DNA of 64,000 nt from an uncultured Acidobacteriota bacterium (lineage in GTDB: Bacteria > Actinomycetota > Acidimicrobiia > Spongiisociales > ZC4RG35). The notes below the pieces were generated by a model that saw nothing but the letters and a program-made list of their open reading frames with translations, was not told where the DNA came from and searched no databases. Below, in pieces: positions 1 to 25,855 of the stretch. A program made the translations under genes and the position numbers. The stretch's first letter is position 1. Each line of letters opens with the position of its first letter. The DNA is taken from contig CAWILU010000003.1 of NCBI GenBank assembly GCA_963837055.1, positions 199,524-263,523 on the forward strand, in the 5' to 3' direction.

Positions 1-1608
<1,608 letters not shown>

Positions 1609-1616
<8 letters not shown>

Positions 1617-2563
1617 CCAAATCACCCTGCAAGACCAAAACGTCCTCGTCACCGGCGGCCACGGTTTCATCGGTCGCCACGTGGTGAGCGCCCTCTCACA
1701 CGCCGGCGCCAACCCGCTGGCGATCTCACAGCACGAGGGTTCTGCCCTGCCCGACTTGCCCGGGAAGTCGGTAACTGTCGATCTCGAGGAGCGTCGTGGG
1801 CTCGATCAGGTCATGAAGGGAGTCGATGCCGTCATCCATCTGGCGGCCAGGGCCGGGGGCATCCAGTTCCAGCAGAAAGGTGGAGGGGATGTCTTCGCCA
1901 CGAATCGCCGTGTCACTGACAACCTGTTGGCGGCATCCGCCGAGGCCGATGTGCAGCGCGTCTTCCTCGCCTCCTCCCTGGTGACCTATCGTGCCGCCGA
2001 CGGAACCCCTCACCGAATCTCACGCTCAACTCGGGCCTGCTGACCGGCCCGACCCTTACGCCTGGTCCAAGATCAGCGACGAGGTCGTCGCCTCATGGCA
2101 ACAAGAGTTGGATACGGTCGTGGGCAGGTTCGGCAACGTATACGGGCCGGGTGCGCCGTTCGAGCCGGACAGGTCAACAGTGGTCCATGCCCTGATCGAT
2201 CGCGCCGCCCGGCTCAGCGACAACGAGGATCTCGTCGTTTGGGGAGATGGCGCCACAGTCAGGAGCTTCGTCTTCGTTGAAGACGCCGCCCAGGCCGTGC
2301 TTATCGCCCTGACCAAGGGGGAGTCCGGGGAGGCCTACAACGTGGACAGCGGTGTCGAGCTGAGCATCGGCCAGCTCGCCGACACCGTGCGTCGTCACGT
2401 CAACCCGGCCTTGAACATCGTCTATGACCAGTCAAAGCCGGCGGGAGCGCCCTACCGGGTCGCCTCGATCGCCAAGCTGGAGGCCATTGGCTTCTCCCCT
2501 CGGGTGGACCTAGATGAGGGGATAGATCGAACCGTGGAGTGGTACCGAGCGGCTATCCGCTGA
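1609..2563 (+). pseudogene. NAD-dependent sugar epimerase/reductase (GDP-4-keto-6-deoxymannose reductase / GDP-fucose-synthase-like SDR) with one +1 frameshift
   Basis: The N-terminal part has the VLVTGGHGFIGRH Rossmann motif (ORF 1609-2043). The C-terminal part has PYAWSK (the YxxxK catalytic motif) and continues in ORF 1991-2563. The shift is near 2008, in a cccc run. The GTG start overlaps the gmd stop (GTGGCTGA). Confidence 0.75.
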
Positions 2564-2570
2564 CGGCAAG

Positions 2571-4400
2571 TCATCGTCCCTTGCCGAGAGAGCGGATGCG
2601 ACGGATAGGTGCAGTGAGGCGCCAACTCTTGCTCCCTTTCATCATCTCGATCGTGGCGTAGGCCTGTTCGGTTTCTTGCCGGAGTCGAGATACCGCGGCC
2701 TCTTGCTCTCGCTGTTTGGAGAGAAGCGAATCGCGTTCGACCCGAAACGACTCCTGTGCAGCCACCAACTCATTGCGCTCCAGGGCCAACGCCTCGAGAT
2801 CTCTCACCGTGGCATCTCGTTCTTGGAGGGATGTTTCGAGCTCCGATGACAAGGCTTCTCGCTGTGCCAACTCACCATCTCGTTCGACGGCAAGTCGTTG
2901 ATTCTCTCGAACGACCGCATCTCGCTGGATCTCGACTGCAGCCAGCCACTCCCAAGCCAGGGGTATCTCAGGCCAGAACGCAACACCCTCCGATGTCACT
3001 TCCTGCCAGCGATCCAATAGATCCCGGATGACCCGGTCGTTTCTGGAGTGCAGCAGCAAGAAAGACACGATGGCAGTGACGTCATTAGGAAGCTCAGCTG
3101 AGTTGATTCGAGACGCCCGTGGGAGCCTAAGTCCGGGTTGGTCGTCCATAGGTCCCCAGAGGCCCACTATGAACGTCAGGATCGAGAAGTAGCCGTCGCC
3201 CGGCCAGGAGACGTCTCCAGGCGCGTCGGAGACGGCACCGTAATCGATCAAGTGAGCGCGACGCTCATCGGCATCCCAGAGCACATTCCACAACCGGAGG
3301 TCTTCGTGATACAGGCCGTGCTCCTCGAGGATGGCAAGAGCCGATATGACCTGGGTCATCACCTCAGTACGCTCTGAATGATCCAGGGTGCCGACAATCT
3401 CATCCAACCGCTCCCCCGGAAGAAGCGACTGCATGACGACAGATTCGTCGGGGCCATCCGTGAATTCCAACAAGTCAGGGGCCTCGACGTCGGTGCCTGC
3501 GAGTGCCTCCAGGACATGCGCGCATCGGCGTGATTCGATTCGTCGCTCCATCAAGACTTTGGCTTGGACCGACTCGGAGAATCGGCCGGTGATGATCACA
3601 AGACCGTCAGGCAGAACGAAATAGCGGACGCGCCCCACGAGTAGCCCGGGCGCGGCCGAATGCGGTTCCTCAAACCAAGACTGAATCGGCGCCAAGCGTC
3701 CATTCACCAAAGCGAGCAAACGGCTGCAGAAGAGAACGGGGCGTCGAACTTCTCCAAGATGGGTGGACGTGCGGCCCAATTCCCGAATGAACGGATACGG
3801 CGAAAGGGTGATCCTCGGATCGAGGGGAAGCGCCTCTGCCCAATACATAGCCTCGCTCGAGAGTGCCATTTCGAAGACGGCGTGTGGGATCGGTTCCATG
3901 AGTTGCCTGACGAGCTCAACGGCACGACCATGCCCATCGCGATATGCAATGTGGTGCAACACTGCCAATCCGATGACTAGGTCGAACGTCTCGAGTTCGA
4001 CCAGAGAAGCGGTGTCGATCAAATCGCCTTCGATGAAAGCCACATCAAGATCAGGGTGTTCGGCGGCCAGTGCTTTGCTGACTGCGATGTTGATCGGCAG
4101 ATAGTCGATCCCGGTGACATGGTGGTAACCCTCCGCGAGCCGCAGTGCCACGTACCCCTGGGCCGAACCGAGATCCAAGATTCGAAGGGGACGTCCAAGG
4201 TCCGCGGAAAGAAGAGGTACCAGATCCAACAGGTAGTCGACCCGCGAGTCGTCGCTGAGCCGAGAACTCGCGAATGCGGGATAGCCATAGATCGGTTGAT
4301 ATGTCTCAGGCAGCTGAGAGACCAAAGCCTGTAGAGCTGGCTCCATATCCCGCGACTCCGCCTCCAACTCCGGTTCAAACCTCATGTCAATCGATCCCAA
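2571..4400 (-). CDS. WbdD-like tri-domain protein: class I SAM methyltransferase + protein-kinase-like domain + long C-terminal coiled coil (putative glycan chain terminator / length regulator)
   Basis: 609 aa. MTase motif I ILDLGSAQGYVALRLA...DLVIGLAVLHHI. Kinase-like catalytic loop HEDLRLWNVLWD followed by LIDYG. The last ~110 aa (RENQRLAVERDGELAQREALSSELETSLQERDATVRDLEALALERNELVAAQESFRVERDSLLSKQREQEAAVSRLRQETEQ) are heptad-rich. Confidence 0.7.
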   Translation of the reverse strand: MGSIDMRFEPELEAESRDMEPALQALVSQLPETYQPIYGYPAFASSRLSDDSRVDYLLDLVPLLSADLGRPLRILDLGSAQGYVALRLAEGYHHVTGIDYLPINIAVSKALAAEHPDLDVAFIEGDLIDTASLVELETFDLVIGLAVLHHIAYRDGHGRAVELVRQLMEPIPHAVFEMALSSEAMYWAEALPLDPRITLSPYPFIRELGRTSTHLGEVRRPVLFCSRLLALVNGRLAPIQSWFEEPHSAAPGLLVGRVRYFVLPDGLVIITGRFSESVQAKVLMERRIESRRCAHVLEALAGTDVEAPDLLEFTDGPDESVVMQSLLPGERLDEIVGTLDHSERTEVMTQVISALAILEEHGLYHEDLRLWNVLWDADERRAHLIDYGAVSDAPGDVSWPGDGYFSILTFIVGLWGPMDDQPGLRLPRASRINSAELPNDVTAIVSFLLLHSRNDRVIRDLLDRWQEVTSEGVAFWPEIPLAWEWLAAVEIQRDAVVRENQRLAVERDGELAQREALSSELETSLQERDATVRDLEALALERNELVAAQESFRVERDSLLSKQREQEAAVSRLRQETEQAYATIEMMKGSKSWRLTAPIRRIRSLGKGR

Positions 4401-4505
4401 TGCTGACCCTACATTTGCCTTGATACTCGGCGAAGCCAGCGGTCTGCACGGACGATAGACAACGCAAGAGGCGTGAGAGGGCAGCGGGGCAATTATCGAA
4501 CTCCA

Positions 4506-5537
4506 TCATGTGGACCCCGTGAACCGGTCCCAGATCTCTGCGGCCTGACGATCGTGGTTGTCCATCCAGGCCCGCGCCCGCTGCACCGCCTCATCTCTCA
4601 CGCTCAGCAAGCGGCGGGCGGCGTCGGCGATGGCCGAGGGATCGTCGGGCCGATCGGTGGTGGTGATCTCCCAGAGTCGAGGATCGTCGGCGAACACTCC
4701 CGACACCCGGGAGATCAGGCACGGCACCCCGGCCAGGTAAGACTCCTGGGGTGTTGAGGGATGACACTCCGAGAGGGTCACATAGAAGTTCAGGTCGACC
4801 GAGCCCTGGATCGCAACGAACTGCTCCCAGGGCAATTCCCCGTGCTCAACCACATCCAGCCCTTCGAGATAGGACACCTCAGGTCGTCTCATCACATGAG
4901 CCACCGCCCCATCGAGCAAACCGACAGCGAGCAGCTGGGTGACGACATTCTTCCTCCAGAACGGCTCGGCGAACACGCCGATGTGCAAACCCGCCCCGAG
5001 ATCGACCGGATCCAGGTGGGGCAAGACCGGGACCCGGTTGGGTACATATGTCACCGGATAGCCGGCGGCCGTGAACGCCGCGGGGACTCCCACCTTGGCC
5101 ATGCCCACCTCGGTGAGGATGCCGCTGCGGCCGAGGGAAAGGACTTCATCGGCTACGGCCGCCTCGCCCATCTCGGCCCCGTGCTGGGCGGGTGAGGAGT
5201 GAAGGACGCATTTCACCTCGATCCCCACTTCCGCCAGCCGGGTGGCGAGACCGGCGGCGCCGGGGGGCCAGCCCTGGATCACGACCGTCTCGATACCGGC
5301 TGAAGTCATGTGATCGATGAGATGGTCCGCCCATAGGGTGAGGTTGTCGCACTCCACCACCGGGGTGCGGAACGAGTAGGCGACGGTGCGCACCCCCCGC
5401 CAGTCCGGGTGGCAGATCTGGATGACCCGCTCGGTCGCAGCCAAGACGTCCCATGAGCCGAAGGAGAGTTGCGGATCCCGAGTTGCCGGCTGGTCAGGCC
5501 CACGGATCAGGCCGCGAGCCCGATCACGCAGGGGCAA
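4506..5537 (-). CDS. Putative GT-B fold glycosyltransferase-like protein
   Basis: 343-aa ORF with coding-type GC3. Its C-terminal TLSECHPSTPQESYLAGVPCLIS resembles the GT-B E-x7-E region. It overlaps the end of wecB by 14 nt, so it is in the same operon. Confidence 0.5.
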   Translation of the reverse strand: MPLRDRARGLIRGPDQPATRDPQLSFGSWDVLAATERVIQICHPDWRGVRTVAYSFRTPVVECDNLTLWADHLIDHMTSAGIETVVIQGWPPGAAGLATRLAEVGIEVKCVLHSSPAQHGAEMGEAAVADEVLSLGRSGILTEVGMAKVGVPAAFTAAGYPVTYVPNRVPVLPHLDPVDLGAGLHIGVFAEPFWRKNVVTQLLAVGLLDGAVAHVMRRPEVSYLEGLDVVEHGELPWEQFVAIQGSVDLNFYVTLSECHPSTPQESYLAGVPCLISRVSGVFADDPRLWEITTTDRPDDPSAIADAARRLLSVRDEAVQRARAWMDNHDRQAAEIWDRFTGST

Positions 5538-6643
5538 TGAGCTTTCCTATCTCTGCCACCGTGCGTGCCGAGGCGCTGCCATCGCCGTAGGGGGAAGGGA
5601 TGCCGGCCAGGCGCTGATGGAGCCCGGCGATATCGGCGGTCCAGGTTCCGGCCACCTCTGCTATGCCGGGCCCGGGCTCGACCAGCTCGGCGAACGTCCC
5701 GAGCACCTCAGGGCGCTCGGTGCTCCTCCGCACGACGATGACCGAGCGCTTGTAGACCGACACCTCCTCCTGCACCCCTCCCGAGTCAGAGACGAGGAAA
5801 GCGGATTCCGCTCCCAGCCCGAGGAACTCCTGGTAACCGATGGGTTCCACCACCTTTACCTGCCGCGAGCAGATCACCCATGTCGTGCTCGGCGGCCTGG
5901 ATCTTCGAGCGCGGGTGCAGCGGTAATAGAACCGGTAGTTCCATCGAAGCGAGCTGGCGGAGCAGTGCCCGGAAGCGTTCCGGGCGGTCGACGTTCTCGG
6001 GACGATGGAAGGTGGAAAGGACAAAGGAACCAGCCCTGAGCCCATACTCGTCCAACAGTTTGGCTCGTTGCGTTTGCGGCGGCATCAACTCGAGCACCGC
6101 CTCGACCACAGTGTTGCCGGTCACCCTGATCCGGGACTCGGGAATCCCCTCCTCGAGCAGGTTCTTCCGGGACACATCGGTAGGGGCGCAGAGCAGCTCT
6201 CCGATGTGATCGACCACGACACGGTTGTGCTCTTCGGGCATTCGGCGGTCGTAGCTGCGCAGACCGGCTTCGACGTGGACTAGCGGCGTCTCATGGGCGT
6301 TGGCGGCCAGGCCACCGGCCAGGGCGGTGTTGGTGTCGCCCTGGACCACCACCGCGTCCGGGCGCAGCTCAGCGAGCTGTTGGTCGAGGGCTTGAACCGC
6401 CAAACCGATCTGTTGGCCGCGGGTCTGACCCCCAACCCCTAGGTAGGCGTGAGGCTCGTCCAGCCCAAATGCGTCGATGAAGGTGCCGGAGAGCCCCCGG
6501 TCGTAGTGCTGCCCCGTGTGAAGGACGACAGCGGCGGGTCCGAGGAGCCGGATGACATGGGCCAGCTTGATGATCTCAGGCCTGGTACCGAGTACCACCG
6601 CCACCGAGCGCGGTCGTAGGTCGATTAATGGTGCGGCGGACAT
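5524..6643 (-). pseudogene. wecB: UDP-N-acetylglucosamine 2-epimerase (non-hydrolysing) with one +1 frameshift
   Basis: N-terminal 250 aa in ORF 5786-6643 (VLGTRPEIIKLAHV...HVEAGLRSYDRRMPEEHNR...TGNTVVEA). C-terminus in ORF 5524-6045 (VKVVEPIGYQEFLGLGAESAFLVSDSGGVQEE...). Frames switch near 5855. Confidence 0.8.
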
Positions 6644-6752: not shown

Positions 6753-8126
6753 TCAGGCGGATTGCTTCTCCAGCGCCACCAGCGAAATTGCGACGCTCAG
6801 CTCTCGGTCATCCGCACTGAGTCCGACATCTACGGGCCGCCAAGTCCGATTGGCCTGCAGCACCACGTCTTGGGACCCAGTCTCGATGTCCATCGGGAAT
6901 ACCCATGAGAACCAGCCCTCGCCGGCGCGGGCGTGGCCCGAGACCTCGCTCCCGGCCACGGTGGCCCGAACCTCGATCACTCCGCCGACTTCGTCGGGAG
7001 GTGCTGCACCTTCGATTCGGAGCACACCACGTCCCCGGAACGTCGGCGAAAGCAACACTGTGGCCATGGGCTCCTTGCCCATCCATCTGATGTCACGATC
7101 GATAATGGTCTCGCGGGAGTGGAAACCCTGGCACTGCAGATCGTCGTTACGCCCGACCTCCATATAGGGCAGCACGGCCCGTGAGAGAGCATGGCGGCTC
7201 TGATACAACCAATCGGGGTATCTCCATCGGTCTGGTCCTTTTGCCGTAGCCACCACAAACACATACTCGCCACGGTTGTCTCGTTCTATAGCTGGGATCC
7301 CGGTCGGTACGGGCGGAGGAGCAGGGCTGATATCGGCAGTGAACATCTGCTCGATTTCGAAACCCAGGTCTTCCAGCAGAAGCCGAAGCTCGGCAGCGGT
7401 GTATTCGCGATTGTGTCGTCCGTGTACGCCGTAGCCGGATATCGGTTCGTACACGTTTTCCCCTTTGAGCATTTTTAGGAGATTCTCGGCGCGGGACGGG
7501 TTGGGTGTCGTCAGGACCAGTACACCGTTTGGCTTAGTGAGCACGCGATGGATTTCCGCCAAGGCATTGATCGGATCCACTGGCAAGTGCTCGAGAATCT
7601 CACAGAAGTAGACGAGGCCGAATGTCTCATTCTCGTAGGGGAAGCGATCTGTCTCGATATTGAAGTGGTCGTAGACATACTCTCGACTCTCTCCGGCCAG
7701 TGGGCTGGAGATCATCTGTATTCCGGTCGAACCAGTCTCGACACCTTCCCCGAACCAATTGGCACATGTGACATCAAAACTCCGACGTTGCAGCATCCTG
7801 GTGAAGAAATACGGGTTGGATCCGAGCTCGAGGACCCGATCCCCGTCGGAAAGGCTCGGCGTGATGGCGAGTGTGATCCGAAACCGTTCCAGTGCATGAG
7901 ACAGGTAGTTCGATGCCTCCTCCGTCGCAGTTCCGAAGACGTCTGTGTCGGCCAAGAAAGTCCGGAGCTCCTCCCGGTCAGCAATGTCGGCAGGAAAGTG
8001 GATCGTGTTCTCGGGCTGCGGGAGCGGCGGTGTGACGCGTCGATAGGCAGCCGACAGGCGCCGCTTCACGGGATCGGGAAGTGACCACAATGCCCGGCGC
8101 GCCGCTCGACCCAGCGCCGTGGTCAT
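6753..8126 (-). CDS. Class I SAM-dependent methyltransferase with a ~170-aa beta-rich C-terminal domain of unknown function
   Basis: 457 aa. Has VLELGSNPYFFTRML, FGLVYFCEILEHL and NGVLVLTTPN motifs. ATGA overlap with the upstream wzt (8123-8126). Confidence 0.75.
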   Translation of the reverse strand: MTTALGRAARRALWSLPDPVKRRLSAAYRRVTPPLPQPENTIHFPADIADREELRTFLADTDVFGTATEEASNYLSHALERFRITLAITPSLSDGDRVLELGSNPYFFTRMLQRRSFDVTCANWFGEGVETGSTGIQMISSPLAGESREYVYDHFNIETDRFPYENETFGLVYFCEILEHLPVDPINALAEIHRVLTKPNGVLVLTTPNPSRAENLLKMLKGENVYEPISGYGVHGRHNREYTAAELRLLLEDLGFEIEQMFTADISPAPPPVPTGIPAIERDNRGEYVFVVATAKGPDRWRYPDWLYQSRHALSRAVLPYMEVGRNDDLQCQGFHSRETIIDRDIRWMGKEPMATVLLSPTFRGRGVLRIEGAAPPDEVGGVIEVRATVAGSEVSGHARAGEGWFSWVFPMDIETGSQDVVLQANRTWRPVDVGLSADDRELSVAISLVALEKQSA

Positions 8127-11297: not shown

Positions 11298-12327
11298 GGC
11301 TTCGAATCGGGCCCGGGCCACGAATGAGGCCCCAGACCATGCCGATCCCGTAGGCGAGATGCATGATCCCGGCTGCAATCAGCACGAGGGCCGGCGAGGT
11401 CTGGCTGCGGGTCGCAACCCAGATCAGCAGCAGTGCCCACGCACCCGAGATCACCACGATCGGCCACCAGACCCCGTTGCCGACACCAACGATCAGGCCG
11501 GAGAGAAGACCCAGGACGAGTAGCAGCGGGGCGAGGGGCCGGACTGAGGGGAGCTCGCCATTGAGCCAGAGCATCTCCGCCTTGCCCTGGCCATAGCGCA
11601 GATACTGACGCCACAGCGCACCCGGCGTGTCACGTGGCCGGTAAGTGGACAAGATCGCTGGGTCGACGAAGACGGTCCGACCCGAGACCCTCCATCGGTA
11701 GTAGAAGTCGGCGTCCTCTGACGTCCCCGACGGGAACGGTCGGAACCCGCCCAACTGCTCGAAGCCTGACTTCTCGAAGGCGCCGAGATACACCGTGTCG
11801 ACCTGCTCTCTGGTGGTGGCGTGATGGAACCGGCCGGGACCCATGGTCAGTGGGCTCGCCATGGCGGCCGTCACGGCTCGCCCGAAGTCGCTCTCGCCTG
11901 AGGGCCTCATCCGCCCACCAACGGCAGCGTCCAGCTCCTCGATGGCTTTGATCGACTTGCTGACGTAGTCGGGGGCATACCGGGTATGGCCGTCCGCCCT
12001 CACCAGGATCGAGCCGGAGGAGGCCGCTGCTGCCAAATTGAGTCCGAATGCCTGGCGTCGATCCGGGTTGTCGATCACCTTCACCCTCGACTCACGGTTC
12101 ACCCAATTGTCCAGCTTTGCCTTGGTCCCATCGGTCGATCTGCCATCGGCGACTATCAACTCGAGTGGGCCGGGGTAGTCCTGGGCCATGATGTCGCCGA
12201 TCACGTCATCGATGAGATCGACCTCATCCAGGATCGGGAGGATGACGGATACGGAGGGCTCGGTCGCCACGGGCCGGTGAGGATATATCCCGGTGTGGTC
12301 GAGCAGGGATCTAGCGTTCTCGTCCAT
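11287..12327 (-). CDS. Family-2 glycosyltransferase with C-terminal TM helices
   Basis: SVSVILPILDE...IVADGRSTDGT...RADGHTRYAPDY. The ORF stays open to 12648, but that extension is antisense to the methyltransferase gene. Likely starts are ATG 12327 or GTG 12270. Confidence 0.75.
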   Translation of the reverse strand: MDENARSLLDHTGIYPHRPVATEPSVSVILPILDEVDLIDDVIGDIMAQDYPGPLELIVADGRSTDGTKAKLDNWVNRESRVKVIDNPDRRQAFGLNLAAAASSGSILVRADGHTRYAPDYVSKSIKAIEELDAAVGGRMRPSGESDFGRAVTAAMASPLTMGPGRFHHATTREQVDTVYLGAFEKSGFEQLGGFRPFPSGTSEDADFYYRWRVSGRTVFVDPAILSTYRPRDTPGALWRQYLRYGQGKAEMLWLNGELPSVRPLAPLLLVLGLLSGLIVGVGNGVWWPIVVISGAWALLLIWVATRSQTSPALVLIAAGIMHLAYGIGMVWGLIRGPGPIRSLRS

Positions 12328-12915
12328 ATGAGCGCCGACCGGGAGTACACCGCCCGACTCGAGAGGGAGACTGCGAAGGGCTGGAAGAGGGCGCTCGGGG
12401 CCCAGGCGCCCTACCGCCGTCACATTCGGAGAGTGGTCGAGGGCAGGGTCCTCGATGTGGGGTGTGGCATCGGGCGCAACCTCCATCATCTCGACGGTCA
12501 AGGCGTCGGCGTGGACATCAATCCACACTCCGTCGAAGTGGCACGGAGCAACGGTCTCACCGTCTACACGGTCGAGGAATTCGAGAGCGGGCCAGACGCG
12601 GCTCGGGGCGAGTACGACACTCTCCTCTTCGCCCATGTCCTCGAGCACATGACCCAGCCAGAGGCTTCATCCCTGCTCGGTGCCTATCTTCCCTACCTCC
12701 GGACCGGGGGCCGGCTGGTGGTCATCGTTCCCCAGGAAGCCGGGTTCAAATCGGACGCGACCCATGTCACCTTCCTCGATCTGGCCGACCTCGGTGTCCT
12801 GGAGGAGGAGCATGGCTTGGTCCGGGAGACCGGGTACTCCTTCCCGCTTCCCCGGTCGGCCGGTCGTTTCTTCACCCACAACGAGACGGTGGCGATCTCT
12901 CGCAAGGCTCACTGA
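12328..12915 (+). CDS. Small class I SAM-dependent methyltransferase (type 11-like)
   Basis: VLDVGCGIGRNL...DTLLFAHVLEHM...GGRLVVIVP. I chose the ATG at 12328; the ORF-track N-terminal extension from 11986 is antisense to the GT2 gene. Confidence 0.7.
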   Translation: MSADREYTARLERETAKGWKRALGAQAPYRRHIRRVVEGRVLDVGCGIGRNLHHLDGQGVGVDINPHSVEVARSNGLTVYTVEEFESGPDAARGEYDTLLFAHVLEHMTQPEASSLLGAYLPYLRTGGRLVVIVPQEAGFKSDATHVTFLDLADLGVLEEEHGLVRETGYSFPLPRSAGRFFTHNETVAISRKAH

Positions 12916-12957
12916 GGTCTCTCTAAAGCGGCTGGACGCGCCCTTATCCTGCCGGTC

Positions 12958-14296
12958 GTGCGTCTTCCCCGTCCTGCCCTGCCTGGTTGGCTGCTCGCCG
13001 CCACGGCGGCGATCCCCGTCTTCGTGTGGTGGCTGGGCTGGTACCCGGGGTTCGGCTCATCCGACACCATCGATCAGTTCGGCCAAGTCGCCGAGCGGGA
13101 CCTATTTCAACCATCACCCGGCGATCCACACCCTGTACCTCGACATCCTCAGCCTCGGTGGGGCGAGACCGGGGTTGGTCGCTCTCGTCCAGTTGGTCGT
13201 GCTCGGCGTACTCCTCGCCTATGCCGCCTGCTGGCTGGTCGAAGCTGGGGTGCCGCTCTGGCTGGCCATCGGCACCGCCTGGCTGCTCGGGCTCTCCCCC
13301 GCGGTGGCCCCGACCACCCTGGCCCTCTGGAAAGACGTTCCCTTTGCCCTGTTCATGCTCTGGGCCTGGATCGAGCTCCTCGCCTTCGCCCTCGACCCGG
13401 ACCAAGCCTGGCGACCGTGGCCCGCGATCCGACTCGGGCTGGCTCTGGCCGGCGTGTGGCTATTCCGGGGAAACGGGCCGATCACGGTTCTCCTCGTCCT
13501 TCTGGCCCTGGCGTGGGTCTACCGCAGAAAGCTGCGCGTGGTCGGGATCACTACCGGCACAGCTGTCGTCGTCGTCTTCCTCACGATCGGACCGCTGTAC
13601 TCGGTCCTCGATGTTCAAGGGGCAAGCATCGAACCGGCCCAGGTGTTCCTGCCCGACGTCGCAGCCTCCTACAACGACGAGCCGGAGACCTTCACGGAGG
13701 CGGACGTCGACATGCTGGAAGCGATCGCCCCGCCGCTCATCTGGAACACCGAGTACGACTGCTACGACAGCACTCCCCTCCTCTTTCACCCGATGTTCGA
13801 TCAGGTCCCGGTCAGGGAGTCGCCGGGGGACTATCGGGCCCTCGAGGTCGATGTCCTGCTCCGTGACTTCGACACGGTGCTGAGCCACCGTCTCTGTGCG
13901 GCGAACTTCGTCTACGCCCCGAACCAGCCTGCCGATGCCTACTTCCATCGCCCGCCGTACGACTTCCCCCCCAACGATCTGGGTCTCGCCAGGGCTCCGG
14001 TGCTCGGGATCGCTTTCGACGTCACCGACCGGATCTGGCGCTGGGCCGAGATCGACAGCAGGCTGTGGCTCACCTGGAGACCCGCCATCGTCCTCCTCCC
14101 TGCCCTCGCCGCGGTGGTCGTGTTTGCCTTTCGGGCCCGGCGCCTACTCCTTCCGTCTGCCCTCCTGGTCGCTCACACCCTCAACGTCATGGCCACCTCC
14201 CCGGCCCAGGAATTCAGGTACGCCTACCCGCTCTACCTGATGGCGGCCCTCACCCTCCCCTTGCTCTGGCCGATGCTCCGAAGGCCACCCCTCTGA
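12958..14296 (+). pseudogene. Polytopic membrane protein, GT-C-like glycosyltransferase/polymerase candidate, one +1 frameshift
   Basis: N-terminus in ORF 12958 (MRLPRPALPGWLLAATAAIPVFVWWLGWYPGFGSSDTIDQFGQVAE). It continues in ORF 12680 frame (GTYFNHHPAIHTLYLDILSLGG..., followed by more than 8 TM segments). Shift near 13096. Confidence 0.6.
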
Positions 14297-14416: not shown

Positions 14417-15595
14417 ATGATCATGAGGAGAATCACCAGGCTTGTGCTCACCCTCGCCGCGGTGACCGTCGGCTTGTTCATCGGAGCCGGCACTCTCGCC
14501 GCGCTCACCCTCAATTTCTCGGGCACCATCGACGGGTCCGATCCGACCATGCCGGTGGTGTTCATCACCTCGCCGGTTTGCACCAGCCAAGGAGTGACTC
14601 CCGTCCACTATGAGGTGATCGAGTTGGTCCGCCCCCTTCCCGGGACCCATGTCATCGATGTGACCAGCACTGCTGACTTCGCCTCGGCCTATCTGTACGA
14701 AGGGAGCTTCGACCCGGCCAATCCGCTGGAGAACTGCGTGGCGGCCGACAACAGCGGCCCCATCCAGATCACCTACGACTTCGTCCGCAACACCCCGTCC
14801 TATTTCCTGGTCGTCTTCGATGACACCGGCGCACAACTTGGGGGCGACTATCAGGTAGTGGTGAACACGCCGGACCCGCCGCCCAGCACTGTGGGTTTGG
14901 TCGACCCTGTTTCGGGTGAATGGCATCTGCGCAACCAGGTCGGTGCTGTCACCACCTTTGTTTATGGAAACCCGGGCGATGTGCCTTTCATGGGCGACTG
15001 GGACTGTGACGGGGACGACACACCGGGGCTGTTCCGCACCTCCGATGCCTTCGCTTACCTGCGCAACGCGAACTCTCAGGGGATCGCCGACATCCGGTTC
15101 TTCTTTGGCAACCCCTCCGACATCCCATTGGCCGGCGACTTCGACGGAGACGGGTGTGACACCCTCAGCATCTACCGACCCTCCGAACAACGGTTCTACA
15201 TCGTCAATGAGCTGGGTGCTAACAACGGTGGCCTCGGACCAGCGGAGTTCTCGTTCGTTTTCGGAGACCCCGGGGACAAGCCATTCGTCGGTGATTTCGA
15301 TGGCGACGCGATCGACGAGGTCGGACTGCATCGGGAGTCGACCGGGTTCGTCTACTACCGCAACACCCTGACCACCGGCATCGCCGACAACGAGTTCTTC
15401 TTCGGAGACCCTGGAGACCGATTCGTAGCCGGAGACTGGGGCATCGTGGACCGGGTGGAGACTCCCGGCGTGTTCCGACCGGCGGCCATCACCTTCTACT
15501 TCAGGCACACCAACACCCAAGGCAACGCCGACAGCAGTTTCGCCTTCGGCATCCCAAGCTGGTTACCCGTCAGCGGAGACTTCGGCCTCGGCTAG
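14417..15595 (+). CDS. Secreted protein: unknown N-terminal domain + 4.5x FG-GAP-like repeat module
   Basis: Signal/TM MIMRRITRLVLTLAAVTVGLFIGAG. The repeats are of the form [FY]G[ND]PxDxPxxGD[WF]DGDGxDTxxxYR. Confidence 0.8.
   Translation: MIMRRITRLVLTLAAVTVGLFIGAGTLAALTLNFSGTIDGSDPTMPVVFITSPVCTSQGVTPVHYEVIELVRPLPGTHVIDVTSTADFASAYLYEGSFDPANPLENCVAADNSGPIQITYDFVRNTPSYFLVVFDDTGAQLGGDYQVVVNTPDPPPSTVGLVDPVSGEWHLRNQVGAVTTFVYGNPGDVPFMGDWDCDGDDTPGLFRTSDAFAYLRNANSQGIADIRFFFGNPSDIPLAGDFDGDGCDTLSIYRPSEQRFYIVNELGANNGGLGPAEFSFVFGDPGDKPFVGDFDGDAIDEVGLHRESTGFVYYRNTLTTGIADNEFFFGDPGDRFVAGDWGIVDRVETPGVFRPAAITFYFRHTNTQGNADSSFAFGIPSWLPVSGDFGLG
14897..15592 (+). repeat. Coding repeat module (about 4.5 FG-GAP-like blades), copy 1 of 3 in the window
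   Basis: YGNPGDVPFMGDWDCDGDDTPGLFR / FGNPSDIPLAGDFDGDGCDTLSIYR / FGDPGDKPFVGDFDGDAIDEVGLHR / FGDPGDRFVAGDWGIVDRVETPGVFR / FGIPSWLPVSGDFG. Confidence 0.8.
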
Positions 15596-15863: not shown

Positions 15864-17000
15864 ATGAAGACGAGAGGGATTGTTCGGCCACGTCTCAGAC
15901 ACGTACTCGTGGCCGTGCCGATGAGTCTCATCCTGTTGGCCGTGCCGGCCACTTCCGCGGTCGCCCTGCCCGACGATGGCTTGACCCCGAAAAGCATGTT
16001 CCTCGACCTCGGCGGCGCGAGTGCCGAGGAGATCGCTGCCCGGGTCGACCGAATCTGCTCCGAGCACCGAGATCCCAGCAACGACGGCTACATCGCGAAC
16101 GTCGTCATCGTGGGGGTCCTCGACCAGCGAGGTGCCCTTCGCGTGGACCAGCTGCTCGCAGTCCTCCCCCATGTCCCTGGCGGCGGACGCAAGACATGCT
16201 TTGACAACGTGTTCATCGGCCCAACCCAGCTCGACGGGTCAGGGCAACCGTGGAAGAGCCGGGCAGACTTCCCCGGTGGGCTCGAGGCTTGGTGCGCCGA
16301 CAGCCTGTACTGCGGCGGGATCCTCACCCCTTCGTGGCGATGGGACAACATCGCAGCAAATCGACGAGCGGCAGATCAGTTTCTGGCATTCGTCGACTTT
16401 CATTTCCCGGGCGTCCGAAACACCTTGAACTGGTATATGACCTACGAGGGCTACTTCGACTGGATGGGCGGGAACCGCTACAGCGACGGCATCGCCTCGG
16501 CATACACCGCCTACATGCTCGAACTCGTCAAGACCTTCAACGATGCGCTCCAATACGCCGGTGAGCAACCCCAGACTTCCAGCCGGTCCGTGCTCTGGTC
16601 GCCCGCCTATGCCAATTCCTACTACTCGCACTCACAGCTTCAGCTGAACAACATTCGGGACAACCTCCGCACGGTCTTTCAGAACGTCCAGACAATGGCC
16701 GCCGGCGAAGGGATTGCCCGCGGGGTGGACTGGCTCGACATGCAGGACAAACTCGGCCAGACCGATTGCTTTTCGTTTGACTGCTACAGCGGCGTCAAGC
16801 ACTGGTATGACTTCCTCACCACCGTCAATTACGAGCAGTTCGCTTTTGCCAGTCTGAGGGTCAATATGGAGTTGTTCTCGACGAACCTGCCGGTGCCCGA
16901 CCTGAACGAGCAAATGGCCCGCCAAAACTTCTACGAGGCCAATGGCATCCCGATCGGAGCTTCGTGGGAGCTCCGGTTCTGGGACAGGCCCTCACTCTGA
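15864..17000 (+). CDS. Secreted hypothetical protein, possibly glycoside-hydrolase-like
   Basis: 378 aa with a signal peptide (VLVAVPMSLILLAVPATSAVA). Trp/Tyr-rich (NWYMTYEGYFDWMGG). The function is inferred only from its glycan-locus context. Confidence 0.5.
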   Translation: MKTRGIVRPRLRHVLVAVPMSLILLAVPATSAVALPDDGLTPKSMFLDLGGASAEEIAARVDRICSEHRDPSNDGYIANVVIVGVLDQRGALRVDQLLAVLPHVPGGGRKTCFDNVFIGPTQLDGSGQPWKSRADFPGGLEAWCADSLYCGGILTPSWRWDNIAANRRAADQFLAFVDFHFPGVRNTLNWYMTYEGYFDWMGGNRYSDGIASAYTAYMLELVKTFNDALQYAGEQPQTSSRSVLWSPAYANSYYSHSQLQLNNIRDNLRTVFQNVQTMAAGEGIARGVDWLDMQDKLGQTDCFSFDCYSGVKHWYDFLTTVNYEQFAFASLRVNMELFSTNLPVPDLNEQMARQNFYEANGIPIGASWELRFWDRPSL

Positions 17001-18190: not shown

Positions 18191-19174
18191 AGCCGTATCG
18201 ACGGCAGGCTCGCTGACACAGGCGGGCAGAGGCGTACCGACCATCGGGACCCCGCATGCCAGGTACTCGTACATCTTGAGCGGAGTCACCGCCTCCGTCA
18301 TCTCGTCGACGATGAACGGAAGGATGCCGACTTTGAAGCCACGGACGAAGTCGGCGATCTGCTGGGACGGCTGGGCCGGAATGAGGGTCACATTGCCCTG
18401 TTGCCGCAGTTCTCGAGCCTGATCTCTCACTTCGGGGTCGACCGGGCCGACCAAGACGAAGTCGAGCTCAGGCCTCAGGCCGGCCACGGCGTCAAACAGC
18501 TCGAAGTCGAACCATGGCGCAAGGGCACCGTGATAGCCGACGACCGGACCCTCGGGGAGGGCGTCGGCGATGGGCCCCACAGAATCGAAGCGATCCACGT
18601 CGACCCCGTTCTCCACCAGCAGCATGTCGGGACGCTCCGCCCGGTGCCGGTCGACGAGGACCGGGTTGGATGCGATGACGACATCGGCGCTCTCCACCAG
18701 CGGCCCGTGATGATGTCTCACCGTCCGGGCTCGAGGCATTCCGTCCTCCATGGGCTCGTAGATGGCCAAGTCGTCCAGGAGGTCGTAGACCACGACCCGA
18801 TCGGCGTAGCGGTCGATGAGAGTGCGAGTGGGGGCGAAATGGGTGTAGACGATCACACCCGAGCGTGGCGTGTCCCGGATCGAGGGGACCAGGTGGATCC
18901 GTCCTTCCACCACACTCGACTCGCCCAGACGCGGGTCGACGAACCACACCTCATGACCGGCCGCGGCAAGGGCCTCGAGCAAATACTGAGGGCGCTGCTT
19001 CATCGTCTCCCAGCCCAGCCAGGTAGGGAGATAGACCACCGGCCGCAGAGATCCGGGCCGTGGGACCGGGCCGCGCGGGTAGTCGTACATGCGATCGCGC
19101 AGCTCCATTGCCCCTGGAAGCCGCTTTAGCGCTCGCTTCACCCGACCGGGAACGACGGAGACCACACGGTTCAT
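18029..19174 (-). CDS. GT-B (GT4/TuaH-like) glycosyltransferase
   Basis: KQRPQYLLEALAAAGHEVWFVDP...GYHGALAPWFDFEL...LPF...TPLKMYEYLACGVPMV. I chose the ATG at 19174 (MNRVVSV), 4 nt after the upstream stop. The ORF track extends to 19246. Confidence 0.75.
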   Translation of the reverse strand: MNRVVSVVPGRVKRALKRLPGAMELRDRMYDYPRGPVPRPGSLRPVVYLPTWLGWETMKQRPQYLLEALAAAGHEVWFVDPRLGESSVVEGRIHLVPSIRDTPRSGVIVYTHFAPTRTLIDRYADRVVVYDLLDDLAIYEPMEDGMPRARTVRHHHGPLVESADVVIASNPVLVDRHRAERPDMLLVENGVDVDRFDSVGPIADALPEGPVVGYHGALAPWFDFELFDAVAGLRPELDFVLVGPVDPEVRDQARELRQQGNVTLIPAQPSQQIADFVRGFKVGILPFIVDEMTEAVTPLKMYEYLACGVPMVGTPLPACVSEPAVDTASGPNDFAAAIDTALALTPGERLDLRRHALAAHWGRRVAPLLDRLGDRGQLLVG

Positions 19175-19178
19175 CGAC

Positions 19179-21455
19179 TCACTCGTTCTCCGACGGTAGG
19201 AAGTCACCGTCGCCAGGCGTGGTATCCACTCCGGATTGTGCGGCAAAGCCTTGGGCGAGGCCGTTGTGTCCTACCACCGGCAGCAGGCCACGGTCGGCGA
19301 GGCCGAACCCGATGACGTGATCAGCGACGCCCTGGGTGTTGGAGAGGCGGATGTACCAGTTGCCGTCGGACGGCCGGAAGATGGCCGGTGAGTCGCTTCC
19401 GTCACCATCCCAGTCGGCGGCCACGAGGAAGTCGCCGGGGTCCCCATAGATGAAATCTCGGTCTGCCCTACCCGTGGTCAGGCTGAACCGGAAATAGACC
19501 CGGCCCGTGGACTCCCGATGGAGACCCACCTCATCGAGCCCATTGCCGTCGAAATCGCCGACGAACGGCTTGTCTCCGGGGTCGCCGAACATGAAGGAGT
19601 GCTCGGCGAAGCCGAGCCCGGCATCTCCGGCGCCCAACCGGTTGATGACGTAGAACCGCTGCTCGGAAGGGCGATAGATCGACAGCGTGTCGCACCCATC
19701 CCCGTCGAAGTCGCCCGGGATCGGGATGTCGCTCGGATTGCCGAAGAAGAACTTGATGTCGGCGACTCCCTGGGAGTTGGAGTTACGGAGATAGGCGTAA
19801 CCGTCCGAGCGCCGGTAGAGGCCGGGGGTGTCGACTCCATCGCAATCCCAGTCACCCATGAAGGGCGTGTCCGCCGGGTTGCCATAGAAGAAGTTCGACT
19901 CAGACGAGCTCCACGCCACCTCGTGAGCGAGGCGCCAAGACCCGCCTTCATCCACGTACCCGATCTGATCGCACGCCCCGACGCACAGCGGCCCGGCGTC
20001 GAACGTGTTCGGCCCCGGGTTGGTGAACCAGGACCCGAGGTTGGCGATGGCGCGATCCGGGACACCGCCGAGCCAGACCGAGACGCGGCCGCCCGACAAG
20101 ACGTACAGATCGACACGGCCGTCCCCATCGAAGTCTCCCGGAAGCACCGACGAATCGCCGGCGACCGTCATCGAGGTGTTCAGTCGCTGCGGGCTCCCGC
20201 CATAACCACTTGCCCAGAGGATCACATCGACCCGGGCGTTGGCGCCCGAGCCCACCAGCCAAATGTCGGTATTGCCGTCGACATTGCGGTCGGCGAGGAC
20301 GATCTTCGAGCTCCCCACGGGGACGGTGAGATTCGAGGTGTGGGCCAGTTGCTGATAGCCGGATGCAGACGAGTACACCTCGACCCGGCCCGTGTTACGC
20401 CGGAACACGTAGAGGTCCGGGATCCAGTCGGCCTGGTCGAACAGGGCCAGGCCCAATTCGGCATCGGCCGACCAGGTGGCGCCGGTAGTGACTTGTTTGC
20501 CGACAGTGCCGAATCGGGACCGGTCGTAGTAGACGTCAGCCGTGATGTTGCCCCCGGTGTTGAAGCGCCAGAGGTCGGCGCGGCCATCACCATCGGCATC
20601 GGCGAACATCGGGACACCGTCGCTTGGAGCGCCGCTGGTCCATCTGAGACCGAGCACCCCGAACCGTGCCCCTGCCCCGGCGACCTGCACCTGCCAGCGA
20701 CCGTTCACCGGAACCAATCCGTACAGGTCGTCGGCACCATCTCGTCGCTTGCCAGACATGGCGAGGGCGCCGGCGCCCCCGAGGGCCGATGGGCCCTCGA
20801 CGGCCCTGGTTGTGAAGCTTGCTGCCGCAGTCAGCGGGGCATAGGGCGCGATCCGAGCCATCAGACCGGCCCGGGCCGCAGGGCCGCGCCACGAGTAGTG
20901 CATGCTGTCCTTGCTGAACCGCCAGGAACCGCCCCAGCAGAATCCGGCCGAAATCCATGCTTCCCGGTAGGCCGGCGGCATGTCCGTGATCAGTTGCCCA
21001 TTGGTGACCGGGTTTTGCGGCGGGTTGATATCGAGGGCATTGGCGACGGCGTGATGTGACATCTGGTTGCTGCCCGCGATGTTGCGCCAGGCCCAGGCAT
21101 CGCCGGTCCTGATGGTGTATCCCACGCCGGAGGCATTGATCCGCTGAGCTGCGCCCTGGAAGGAGGCGAGGGCCCTGCCATGAACGCGGTATCCGTGGCC
21201 GGAGGGATCGACCCAGTTGACCAGCGATGAGGACACCTGGCCGAAGTTTCGCCCGAAGTAGTCGGCAAACGGGCCGTATATGCGATCACCCAACCGATTG
21301 GACGGGCTGAGCGGCCCCCTCATCCCATAGACCCCGCAGCTGCTCGACTCGGTGAAGTTCGGGGTGGAGTCTCCCGCGGTCGACGATGCGCCATATGCAG
21401 GGGAGGCCAGGGCCAGAAAAAGGGCGAGGGCGATCGGAATCCGCTTCATAACCAA
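19179..21455 (-). CDS. Secreted peptidase M15-like cell-wall hydrolase + FG-GAP/VCBS region + C-terminal 4.5x repeat module
   Basis: Signal peptide MKRIPIALALFLALASPAYG. M15 motifs SHHAVANALDI and DSMHYSW. Central DADGDGRADLW / GDFDGDGRVDLY FG-GAP repeats. The C-terminal module is paralogous to 14897-15592. Confidence 0.75.
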   Translation of the reverse strand: MVMKRIPIALALFLALASPAYGASSTAGDSTPNFTESSSCGVYGMRGPLSPSNRLGDRIYGPFADYFGRNFGQVSSSLVNWVDPSGHGYRVHGRALASFQGAAQRINASGVGYTIRTGDAWAWRNIAGSNQMSHHAVANALDINPPQNPVTNGQLITDMPPAYREAWISAGFCWGGSWRFSKDSMHYSWRGPAARAGLMARIAPYAPLTAAASFTTRAVEGPSALGGAGALAMSGKRRDGADDLYGLVPVNGRWQVQVAGAGARFGVLGLRWTSGAPSDGVPMFADADGDGRADLWRFNTGGNITADVYYDRSRFGTVGKQVTTGATWSADAELGLALFDQADWIPDLYVFRRNTGRVEVYSSASGYQQLAHTSNLTVPVGSSKIVLADRNVDGNTDIWLVGSGANARVDVILWASGYGGSPQRLNTSMTVAGDSSVLPGDFDGDGRVDLYVLSGGRVSVWLGGVPDRAIANLGSWFTNPGPNTFDAGPLCVGACDQIGYVDEGGSWRLAHEVAWSSSESNFFYGNPADTPFMGDWDCDGVDTPGLYRRSDGYAYLRNSNSQGVADIKFFFGNPSDIPIPGDFDGDGCDTLSIYRPSEQRFYVINRLGAGDAGLGFAEHSFMFGDPGDKPFVGDFDGNGLDEVGLHRESTGRVYFRFSLTTGRADRDFIYGDPGDFLVAADWDGDGSDSPAIFRPSDGNWYIRLSNTQGVADHVIGFGLADRGLLPVVGHNGLAQGFAAQSGVDTTPGDGDFLPSENE
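19270..19967 (-). repeat. Coding repeat module, copy 2 of 3
   Basis: YGNPADTPFMGDWDCDGVDTPGLYR / FGNPSDIPIPGDFDGDGCDTLSIYRPSEQRFYVIN / FGDPGDKPFVGDFDGNGLDEVGLHRESTG / YGDPGDFLVAADWDGDGSDSPAIFR. Long stretches are near-identical in protein to copy 1. Confidence 0.8.
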
Positions 21456-24181: not shown

Positions 24182-25855
24182 TCAGCAGACGACACCGACC
24201 GCGTCCCGGCTCTCCTTGGCGTGGTAGCTAGAGCGGACCAGCGGGCCGGATTCGACGTGAGGGATGCCCAGGCCCTCTCCGTACTTCTTGTACTCCCCGA
24301 ACTCCTCTGGGTGGACATAGCGGGCGATAGGTCGGTGTCTCGGGGTGGGTCGCAGGTACTGGCCAATGGTGATGATGTCGATGCCCACCGCACGCATGTC
24401 GGCCAGAGCGCCGAGCACTTCCTCCCGGGTCTCCCCCATCCCGACGATGAGCCCGGACTTGATGAGCCCATCGGGGTTCATCTGCTTCGCACGCCAGAGC
24501 AGCGCCAGAGATCTGCCATAGCTGGCCGAAGTCCTGATGTCGCGCTGCAAACGGAGCACGGTCTCGGTGTTGTGGTTGAGCACCTCAGGCACCGCGTCCA
24601 TCACGGTCTGCAGGGCCTCACGATCGCCTTTGAAGTCGGGGATGAGCACCTCGATCTCGGTTCCCGGGGATCGGCGTCTGCTCTCGGTGATGGTGTGGGC
24701 GAAGATCCCGGCCCCCCCGTCATCGAGGTCGTCCCTGTTCACCGAGGTGATCACGGCGTGCTTGAGGTTCATCTGATGGATCGCCTCAGCGGCCCGGAAC
24801 GGCTCGAATACGTCGAACTCAGTGGGTTTCCCGGTGGTCACATTGCAGAAGGAGCAAGCCCTGGTGCATTTATCCCCCAAGATCATCAGAGTGGCGGTCC
24901 CCATGCCCCAGCACTCGTAGATGTTGGGGCAATTCGCCTCCTCGCACACCGTGTTGAGCTGCAGGCCGCGCATCATCTTCTTCAACTCGATGTAGTCGCC
25001 GTCGAGCCGGGCCGTCACCTTCATCCAGTCTGGGCGGGGCGGCTCTCCGGGGAGACGCCCGTTGATGAGAATCGGCTCCGCGCTTCGCTTCTCCGGGCTG
25101 AACGTCCCCGACTCGACCAGCCGATCGACCTCGAACTCGGGACGCCGACCCTGGCCTCGTGCGAAGGCCCCCAACTGGATCTCTGTCTCGGGATAACCGA
25201 AGACCTCCTCGAAACGAGGGATCAGCGCCCGGGTCGCCTCCTCGAGAGTGACCTTCCTCCCCACCAGATCAGACAGCGTCGTGACCGGGCGATCGGAGAT
25301 CCCACACGGGTTCATCATCCCGAAATAGGTGAGGTCGGGGTGGAGGTTGAGCGCGAAACCGTGCATCGTGACCTTCCGCGCCACCCTCACACCAATGGCT
25401 GCCACCTTGCCGCTTGCCGTCCACACTCCGGTCAAACCAGGCTCGGCCCAGGCCTCGACTCCGAAGTCGGACAAGGTTGCGATCAGGGTCTGCTCGAGCC
25501 GCCGCACGTAGGGGACGATCTGCTTGGGGTCGTCGAGGGTCAAGATCGGGTATCCGACCAGCTGACCGGGGCCGTGGAACGTGATGTCGCCACCCCGATC
25601 GACGTGGTGGACCTCGACCCCGAGGCCCACCCGATCGACGAGGAGGTTCGAGCCGTCACCATTCCTCCCGATCGTGAACACCGCTGGGTGCTCGAGCAGC
25701 AGGAGGTAGTCGTCCGTCGTACGCCCGACCACTTTCCCCTCGTGGATGGCGCGTTGCAGATCCCACGCCTCGGTGTAGGGAAGGCGGCCCAGCCAGCGGG
25801 TGCGGAGAATCTCGTTTTGCGAATGGTCAGGAGTCAAGCCAGCTCCTGCTCCCAA
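24182..25855 (-). CDS. lipB-lipA: Octanoyltransferase LipB fused in one ORF to lipoyl synthase LipA
   Basis: 557 aa. LipB part (aa ~15-222): HPAVFTIGR...DRGGDITFHGPGQLVGYP...KVAAIGVRV. A ~45-aa linker follows. LipA part: NTVCEEANCPNIYECW...CTRACSFCNV radical-SAM clusters...RSSYHA. Confidence 0.8.
   Translation of the reverse strand: MGAGAGLTPDHSQNEILRTRWLGRLPYTEAWDLQRAIHEGKVVGRTTDDYLLLLEHPAVFTIGRNGDGSNLLVDRVGLGVEVHHVDRGGDITFHGPGQLVGYPILTLDDPKQIVPYVRRLEQTLIATLSDFGVEAWAEPGLTGVWTASGKVAAIGVRVARKVTMHGFALNLHPDLTYFGMMNPCGISDRPVTTLSDLVGRKVTLEEATRALIPRFEEVFGYPETEIQLGAFARGQGRRPEFEVDRLVESGTFSPEKRSAEPILINGRLPGEPPRPDWMKVTARLDGDYIELKKMMRGLQLNTVCEEANCPNIYECWGMGTATLMILGDKCTRACSFCNVTTGKPTEFDVFEPFRAAEAIHQMNLKHAVITSVNRDDLDDGGAGIFAHTITESRRRSPGTEIEVLIPDFKGDREALQTVMDAVPEVLNHNTETVLRLQRDIRTSASYGRSLALLWRAKQMNPDGLIKSGLIVGMGETREEVLGALADMRAVGIDIITIGQYLRPTPRHRPIARYVHPEEFGEYKKYGEGLGIPHVESGPLVRSSYHAKESRDAVGVVC

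Follow-up and report, generated by a model that had tools for sequence, protein, structure and literature searches.

Two prototypes of ABC-transporter-dependent control of glycan chain length have been characterised, both of them Gram-negative: capped chains exported by a Wzt that carries a carbohydrate-binding module (CBM), and chains without a cap, for which the exporter has a short Wzt. In all characterised terminated O-polysaccharides the CBM is attached to Wzt, and the CBM-less exporter of Klebsiella pneumoniae O1/O2 operates without cap recognition (PMC11231755). A 64,000-nucleotide stretch of contig CAWILU010000003.1 (hereafter the window) raises the question of what a chain terminator of the Escherichia coli WbdD type might do in a locus whose Wzt is short. 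We conclude that an open reading frame (ORF) at positions 2571-4400 encodes a WbdD-family protein, which probably acts as a bifunctional terminator and ruler on the glycan of this locus, exported by the adjacent Wzm/Wzt. The host belongs to the class Acidimicrobiia, phylum Actinomycetota, and as an actinobacterium is monoderm. Homologues of the WbdD-like protein and of MT457, a methyltransferase encoded beside wzt, bear names from Acidimicrobiales or Ilumatobacteraceae. An NCBI protein encoded in an Acidimicrobiia metagenome-assembled genome (MAG) falls in the same 90%-identity cluster as the window's Wzm, in agreement with the actinobacterial-type genome proposed in an initial annotation of this DNA.

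By every sequence and structure criterion that we tried, the product of this ORF is a genuine WbdD-family methyltransferase-kinase. The initial annotation had described a class I S-adenosylmethionine (SAM) methyltransferase, a kinase and a C-terminal coiled coil of ~110 residues in the domain order of E. coli O9a WbdD, and Pfam, phmmer, AlphaFold2 and Foldseek agree on a three-part architecture. Specifically, Pfam places a class I methyltransferase at residues 74-155 (E=9e-11), and a phmmer search against all PDB chains returned E. coli O9a WbdD with E=1.4e-60 over residues 22-416 of the query, the runner-up having 9e-6. An AlphaFold2 model built on an alignment of 24 homologues has a mean predicted local distance difference test score (pLDDT) of 86. 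When this model was compared with PDB by Foldseek, the top five matches were five WbdD entries (E from 1e-33 to 3e-30; the sixth match, 3e-8), with target-normalised template modelling (TM) scores of 0.75-0.80. The central domain thus models as a kinase fold that matches WbdD, so the point on which the earlier assignment could have failed speaks in its favour, and both motifs on which it drew, the catalytic-loop motif HEDLRLWNVLWD and LIDYG, are located in the ORF. The public gene call on the identical sequence (P0212) begins at ATG 4346 and yields 591 residues. WbdD of E. coli O9a and K. pneumoniae O3 (PDB 4azs, 4uw0) has the same order of methyltransferase, kinase, coiled coil and C-terminal membrane-proximal segment, and at about 28% identity the window protein keeps all of the catalytic residues that we checked.

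The extent of this conservation was assessed by aligning 92 homologues with E. coli WbdD. Methyltransferase residues Y34, H149, H150 and R220 (E. coli Y16, H132, H133 and R203) are invariant, as are kinase residues H365, D367, W371, N372 and D386 (E. coli H349, D351, W355, N356 and D369), of which the first four form part of the catalytic loop H365-E-D367-LRLW371N372 and the last lies within LIDYG. In E. coli WbdD the substitutions Y16F, H132A, H133A and R203A each abolish phosphate methylation, D351 is essential to kinase activity, and Y230 has a role in acceptor binding (PMC3482155). Given the conserved residues and the mechanism known for E. coli, the predicted chemistry is that of WbdD: the kinase domain would phosphorylate the non-reducing terminal sugar hydroxyl of a polyprenol-linked glycan at the cytoplasmic face of the membrane, and the methyltransferase domain would then methylate the terminal phosphate and block further extension. 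At the position of Tyr230 the window protein has His247. We considered this as a clade-specific change at the acceptor site and dropped the idea because 85 of the 92 homologues carry His, which makes the E. coli Tyr the exception.

The third part of the protein is a single 109-residue helix (residues 481-589), which is uninterrupted in the AlphaFold2 model (pLDDT 85-93) and is followed by a short second helix (591-606). Its length, which we estimate at about 16 nm, is less than the ~20 nm reported for the E. coli coiled coil (PMC5082667), but like that coil it is long enough to serve as a ruler. Hydrophobic residues recur in it with a 7-residue period (p=0.0008, 20,000 shuffles), whereas the 3.5-residue signal expected of canonical a/d positions is weak. 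Beyond the long helix remain only ~18 residues, a moderately amphipathic tail with a net charge of +6, for which a putative role as membrane-surface anchor is a reasonable reading. Judging from the predicted structure, the long helix may oligomerise as a coiled coil and keep the catalytic head and the basic C-terminal helix ~16 nm apart, and the latter, if placed at the membrane or polymerase, would allow modal chain length to be set in the manner of a ruler.

The C-terminal helix contains a sequence motif, SW[RK]xTxP[LIVFM]R, that marks the family. Among ORFs of at least 100 aa from about 90 loci it occurs 47 times, in every case in a WbdD-like ORF. In two metagenome loci, L039 (9980-14806) and L019 (1060-6648), GT4 and GT2 glycosyltransferase (GT) modules follow the motif within one polypeptide (1608 and 1862 aa, respectively), and for this reason we take the motif to mark that end of the helix which faces the polymerase or membrane. 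These fusions are all-in-one terminator-polymerase forms based on the WbdD module. Across the family, between 167 and 349 aa separate the catalytic loop from the motif, as expected for a tunable spacer, and the family therefore supplies natural coiled coils of widely differing length as material for testing the ruler model. A finer regularity suggested by the first 16 homologues, in which coil length seemed to change by whole heptads (69+7k), was abandoned when 51 non-redundant sequences gave no clear preference modulo 7.

The gene is maintained by selection. Between the window and an orthologue of 80% identity in locus L002, the ratio of nonsynonymous to synonymous substitution rates (dN/dS) is 0.23 for the whole gene, which places it under purifying selection; the catalytic domains have 0.15-0.16 and the helix 0.68. 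The helix thus evolves fast, and yet its length is maintained in close relatives and is identical in L002; a fast-changing helix of fixed length is the pattern expected of a spacer. With this dN/dS and the coil length kept, the gene is predicted to be functional.

We then considered the exporter with which the protein would work. The wzm and wzt genes lie 3.7-5.3 kb from the start of the WbdD-like gene on the same strand, in line with the pair that the initial annotation placed 4-5 kb away in the same orientation. The short Wzt without a carbohydrate-binding domain that it reported is also borne out, since the protein of 245-259 aa has an ABC_tran domain only and no Wzt_C. Its closest structural relatives are the nucleotide-binding domain (NBD) of Aquifex aeolicus Wzt, then RfbE (1e-50) and TagH/TarH, and the top NCBIfam model is that of the galactan exporter Wzt/RfbE. 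In this respect it resembles CBM-less exporters, namely those of K. pneumoniae O1/O2a, mycobacterial galactan (RfbD/RfbE, PDB 9qfx) and TagGH/TarGH, which have an NBD-only Wzt as well. In characterised CBM-less systems length is determined by transporter stoichiometry or by the polymerase, with no coiled-coil terminator, and for mycobacterial galactan, the known actinobacterial example, it is set through the polymerase (PMC11231755; PMC7494350). The window differs from them in having a terminator gene in the locus. It differs from the E. coli WbdD system as well, in that the terminator gene, although linked to wzm/wzt, is not directly downstream of wzt, Wzt has no CBM, and the host is actinobacterial. 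The system is therefore not canonically capped, because the CBM on Wzt is absent, and not canonically uncapped, because a WbdD-type terminator gene is present. A terminator is rarely paired with a CBM-less exporter, and it is by gene content that this case is a variant.

The remaining genes of the locus provide pathways to a GDP-6-deoxyhexose and to UDP-ManNAc, together with GT2 enzymes and methyltransferases. Overlaps of 4 bp at wzm/wzt and at wzt/MT457 couple these three genes translationally. From its position, the substrate of the WbdD-like protein would be the glycan of this locus, exported by the adjacent Wzm/Wzt. Since Wzt has no fused CBM, recognition of the cap by Wzt probably does not gate export; the enzyme would set the length and end group of the chain and not license its export.

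Gene neighbourhoods of related proteins can provide further information about partnership. We compared the window with six loci retrieved through exact proteins and with 80 metagenome loci. In 51 of the 72 loci with distant homologues (<38% identity) a Wzt is encoded, in 49 of them directly upstream of the WbdD-like gene on the same strand, and 48 of these 51 loci have a long Wzt (at least 380 aa). The 15 loci of the protein's own clade (at least 38% identity, the window included) are different: five have a Wzt, and wzt is directly upstream in none. Long forms occur within this clade in L006, L015 and probably L013, whose Wzt is a fragment cut by the contig end that aligns to the C-terminal part of L006 Wzt. 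Over all related loci Wzt is long in 50 of 55 cases. L006, from an Ilumatobacteraceae MAG, and L015, from a metagenome, encode proteins that are 38-39% identical to that of the window and share its short basic tail and SWR motif. Unlike the window, both have a canonical wzm and a 397-aa wzt with Wzt_C; in L015 the WbdD-like gene stands beside this pair, and in L006 the order is wzm, wzt, a 1105-aa triple-GT4 polymerase and, directly after it, the WbdD-like gene. The distant loci with wzt directly upstream, together with L006 and L015, indicate that WbdD homologues normally work with Wzm/Wzt, and the latter two show that the clade has ordinary members of the known system. Outside the window, the pairing with only a short Wzt is found in L039 (duplicated as L077), and L017 and L043 are borderline; in L039 an NBD-only Wzt of 252 aa (18801-19559) is encoded ~4 kb from the WbdD-GT4 fusion.

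Several of our observations weigh against a terminator that serves the adjacent exporter. Wzt has no CBM, unlike that of every characterised capped system. The closest informative relatives, the non-redundant loci L003, L004, L005 and L007 (46-53% identity), have no wzm/wzt within 9-10 kb on either side, so that the co-occurrence with ABC-2 exporters expected by the initial annotation holds for L006, L015 and 49 of the 72 distant loci and fails in these four. No WbdA-like multi-domain polymerase is visible inside the window; comparison with L009 and L002 would place it past the left edge. The weak 3.5-residue harmonic means that the heptad pattern is not the textbook a/d type, and with so atypical a signal in helix 481-589 an oligomeric coil is putative. 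The protein ends 9 residues past the SWR motif (2598-2627), whereas many homologues encoded beside a long wzt continue for 58-143 aa after it, so that docking to the membrane or polymerase may differ from that of the long-tailed homologues. The coupling of the protein to the adjacent exporter is one that we infer from position only. Finally, locus L009 has the same short-Wzt exporter and no WbdD-like gene.

L009 is syntenic with the window at 68-82% nucleotide identity and contains gmd, the epimerase gene, the 343-aa gene, wecB, MT457, a short wzt (242 aa), wzm, the small methyltransferase gene and the DUF6020 gene, but has 20 bp where the window has the 1,965 bp that include the WbdD-like gene (2548-4512). 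GC content at third codon positions (GC3) is 0.65 in this gene and 0.78-0.80 in the directly adjacent genes, although MT457 (0.68), wzt (0.72) and wecB (0.73) also fall below those flanking genes. The absence from L009 and the lower GC3 identify the WbdD-like gene as an accessory cassette of ~2 kb. The locus as a whole is a mosaic: the wzm-wzt block, which is beside MT457 in the window, has been relocated relative to L009, and three L009 genes (for a GT2 of 304 aa, a GT1 of 370 aa and a 301-aa protein) are missing from the window. Serotype-like diversity of this kind exists among related Acidimicrobiia.

These features leave room for a different account, in which a mobile cassette was inserted into a recombination-prone region and its WbdD-type terminator serves another glycan pathway, with the exporter (perhaps one with a CBM) and polymerase encoded elsewhere. 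Such an insertion would explain the low GC3 of the gene and its absence from L009, where the flanks and the short Wzt are those of the window, and it would also fit the neighbourhoods of close relatives: in L003 a 53%-identical homologue lies amid unrelated genes, and in L004, L005 and L007 the gene is paired with a large GT1-family enzyme (727-860 aa, or 727-897 aa by ORF calls) with no exporter within 10 kb. However, accessory genes in glycan loci normally modify the product of the host locus, the arrangement of the window is kept in L002 under purifying selection, and no second wzt was found among the scanned ORFs of the 64-kb window. We therefore give this account a real but clearly minor chance, and consider action on the local glycan, with export by the adjacent Wzm/Wzt, the probable one.

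A second alternative retains cap-dependent export but supplies the recognition in trans. In a model with pLDDT 90.6, MT457 has a methyltransferase of Rossmann fold and, C-terminal to it, an all-beta domain (residues ~320-457, or ~296-457 at 6753-7238 when delimited more widely), and this domain might bind the capped end and hand the glycan to the CBM-less transporter. The translational coupling of MT457 to wzt is consistent with such a role, as is one Foldseek match of MT457 to a GH26 mannanase (aligned part unspecified). We considered whether the domain is a displaced Wzt carbohydrate-binding domain (CBD) and rejected homology on three grounds: no Pfam match was obtained at E<=10, a PDB profile search returned only Ig/FnIII-like chains and no Wzt CBD, and hhalign against 42 Wzt_C domains gave a probability of 0.6%. 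What remains is a generic beta-sandwich fold. A search of 1.8 billion representative proteins located the same domain at the C-termini of one Wzt (P0163), behind its own Wzt_C, of Wzy_C O-antigen-ligase-like proteins (P0175, P0182 and P0204) and of GT-C enzymes of the PMT_2 and TMEM260-like types (P0184, P0186 and P0201). These recurrent C-terminal fusions suggest a module that accompanies glycan-handling enzymes. The distribution of MT457 itself argues against a specific CBM substitute, since the family occurs with a long CBM-bearing Wzt (L008), with a short Wzt and without WbdD (L009). A trans-acting cap reader is thus speculation, to which we assign a low likelihood. In its own right, the beta domain is a candidate for an undescribed glycan-binding module that is not homologous to Wzt_C.

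It might also be supposed that the locus is decaying and that the WbdD-like gene is a functionless relic, given that gmd has four frameshifts and the epimerase and wecB genes one each, and that in a sister assembly (a 430,562-bp contig) the WbdD-like gene is split into pieces of 241 and 303 aa. The sister assembly encodes the same proteins at ~99% identity, but its breaks fall elsewhere, with the MT457 N-terminus shifted for example, which is best explained by long-read indel noise rather than decay, and we set a pseudogenised locus aside on this ground. In the window the WbdD-like ORF is intact, with all catalytic residues retained and a dN/dS of 0.23, and the larger ORFs scanned at 17-62 kb have full-length family matches throughout, so that decay is very unlikely. 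That the central domain belongs to a signalling Ser/Thr protein kinase, in a protein that does not modify sugars, is highly improbable: although the top kinase-type Pfam matches are the generic Pkinase and RIO1 (weak, at residues 287-393, at or under gathering thresholds), no protein kinase comes within ~50 orders of magnitude of WbdD by sequence E-value, or within ~25 by Foldseek E-value, and the fused methyltransferase retains the phosphate-nucleophile residues.

Which parts of this arrangement are new depends on what is already described. JGI annotates homologues as 'O-antigen chain-terminating (bifunctional) methyltransferase(/kinase)', so that the family label pre-exists, and a search for these product names in published papers returned nothing. 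Capped S-layer glycan systems of Gram-positives are known, among them that of Clostridium difficile SLCT-11 (PMC6254364) and that of Geobacillus WsaE. A phosphate-containing or methyl cap at the non-reducing end of these glycans is thought to end synthesis. Such capped S-layer glycans are likewise ABC-transporter-dependent and made by monoderm hosts, but they involve other enzymes, belong to Firmicutes and have no reported WbdD homologue. A further parallel is ORF6 of K. pneumoniae O7, a methyl-phosphate terminator with a coiled coil and the one terminator polypeptide with a precedent of carrying a CBM-type, Ig-like domain (PMC11231755). Its mix of domains is comparable to that of MT457, a methyltransferase with a beta-sandwich encoded beside wzt. 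Its kinase, however, is unrelated to that of WbdD and it has fused GT modules, whereas the window protein has a WbdD-type kinase and no CBM or GT module; L039 and L019 do carry the WbdD module fused to glycosyltransferases.

Our literature search found no WbdD-type terminator described for an actinobacterium; a census by Mann, Kimber and Whitfield (2019, Glycobiology 29:822), outside that search, may list such arrangements. The proposal in the initial annotation of an undescribed actinobacterial arrangement for length control and export coupling is partly supported, in that this search agrees with it, and is weakened by the canonical loci L006 and L015, by a coupling drawn from position and by the existing family label. 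What is already known, then, is the family, named by JGI, with canonical versions in the same class; what is new is that a locus of Acidimicrobiia combines a terminator and a short Wzt, which is rare. The boldest interpretation, that a WbdD-type ruler sets the length and methyl-phosphate end of a wall glycan in a monoderm actinobacterium, with export either uncoupled or coupled in trans through the MT457 domain, and so represents a third organisational mode, we regard as unlikely. If a true WbdD-type terminator does belong with the short Wzt of this locus, termination would be separable from export gating, and control of length by a ruler would reach wall glycans in a class of actinobacteria about which little is known. 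Were its exporter encoded in another part of the genome, the gene would be one more member of a known family.

Coordinates of the features discussed are collected in Table 1.

Table 1. Features of the glycan locus in the window (positions counted from the first nucleotide of the window).
Feature	Position	Strand	Remarks
GDP-mannose 4,6-dehydratase (gmd)	637..1620	+	coordinates approximate; four single-base indels relative to L002 (993, 1112, 1187, 1479)
NAD-dependent GDP-sugar epimerase/reductase	1609..2563	+	convergent with WbdD-like gene; one indel at 1999
Accessory cassette, 1,965 bp	2548..4512		present in window and L002; 20 bp at junction in syntenic L009
WbdD-like terminator ORF	2571..4400	-	stop codon 2571-2573; 609 aa from TTG 4400, first in-frame start
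C-terminal basic amphipathic helix	2574..2633	-	motif S-W-R-L-T-A-P-I-R (aa 592-600)
Putative coiled-coil ruler	2634..2960	-	single 109-residue helix, aa 481-589; AlphaFold2 model
Eukaryotic-like kinase domain	2961..3722	-	aa ~227-480; Pfam, PDB sequence search, Foldseek, residue alignment
Class I SAM methyltransferase domain	3723..4343	-	aa ~20-226; Pfam, PDB sequence search, residue alignment
Conserved protein, 343 aa	4506..5537	-	no family match; immediately upstream of WbdD-like gene; also beside wecB in L009 and L002
UDP-GlcNAc 2-epimerase (WecB/MnaA-like)	5524..6643	-	split by frameshift; L009 copy intact, 367 aa
MT457, 457 aa	6753..8126	-	SAM methyltransferase with C-terminal beta-sandwich domain; start overlaps wzt stop by 4 bp
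wzt, 245 aa	8123..8860	-	nucleotide-binding domain only, no Wzt_C; ORF to 8902 = 259 aa
wzm, ABC-2 permease, 276 aa	8857..9687	-	overlaps wzt by 4 bp
GT2 glycosyltransferase, 383 aa	10146..11297	+	
GT2 glycosyltransferase, ORF 453 aa	11287..12648	-	true start probably later
Small SAM methyltransferase	12214..12915	+	approximate start from 233-aa L009 homologue
DUF6020 polytopic membrane protein	12956..14296	+	approximate start; conserved by cluster in L009

A scan of genome contigs with a single protein as query gave one weak, irrelevant match only, and in the window neither the tRNA scan nor the Rfam scan gave a match. Some of the neighbouring genes are of interest in themselves. The genes for the DUF6020 protein and the small methyltransferase lie beside the exporter cluster both in the window and in L009, and their products may form an extracytoplasmic glycan-modifying pair. 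The glycan locus is separated from an L,D-transpeptidase gene by three ORFs without clear function: 14417-15595 (+), 15864-17000 (+) and 19179-21455 (-). Of their products one shows a weak match to an FG-GAP-type repeat, another matches nothing, and that of 758 aa combines Peptidase_M15_4 with an FG-GAP-like repeat. Pfam-scanned ORFs at ~17-62 kb encode two further glycosyltransferases, cell-wall enzymes and intact housekeeping proteins. At 24182-25855 (-) a 557-aa ORF fuses a LipB-like octanoyl/lipoyl transferase domain (LplA-B_cat) to lipoyl synthase (LIAS_N and Radical_SAM), and it adjoins genes for the E2 and E3 components of a 2-oxoacid dehydrogenase.

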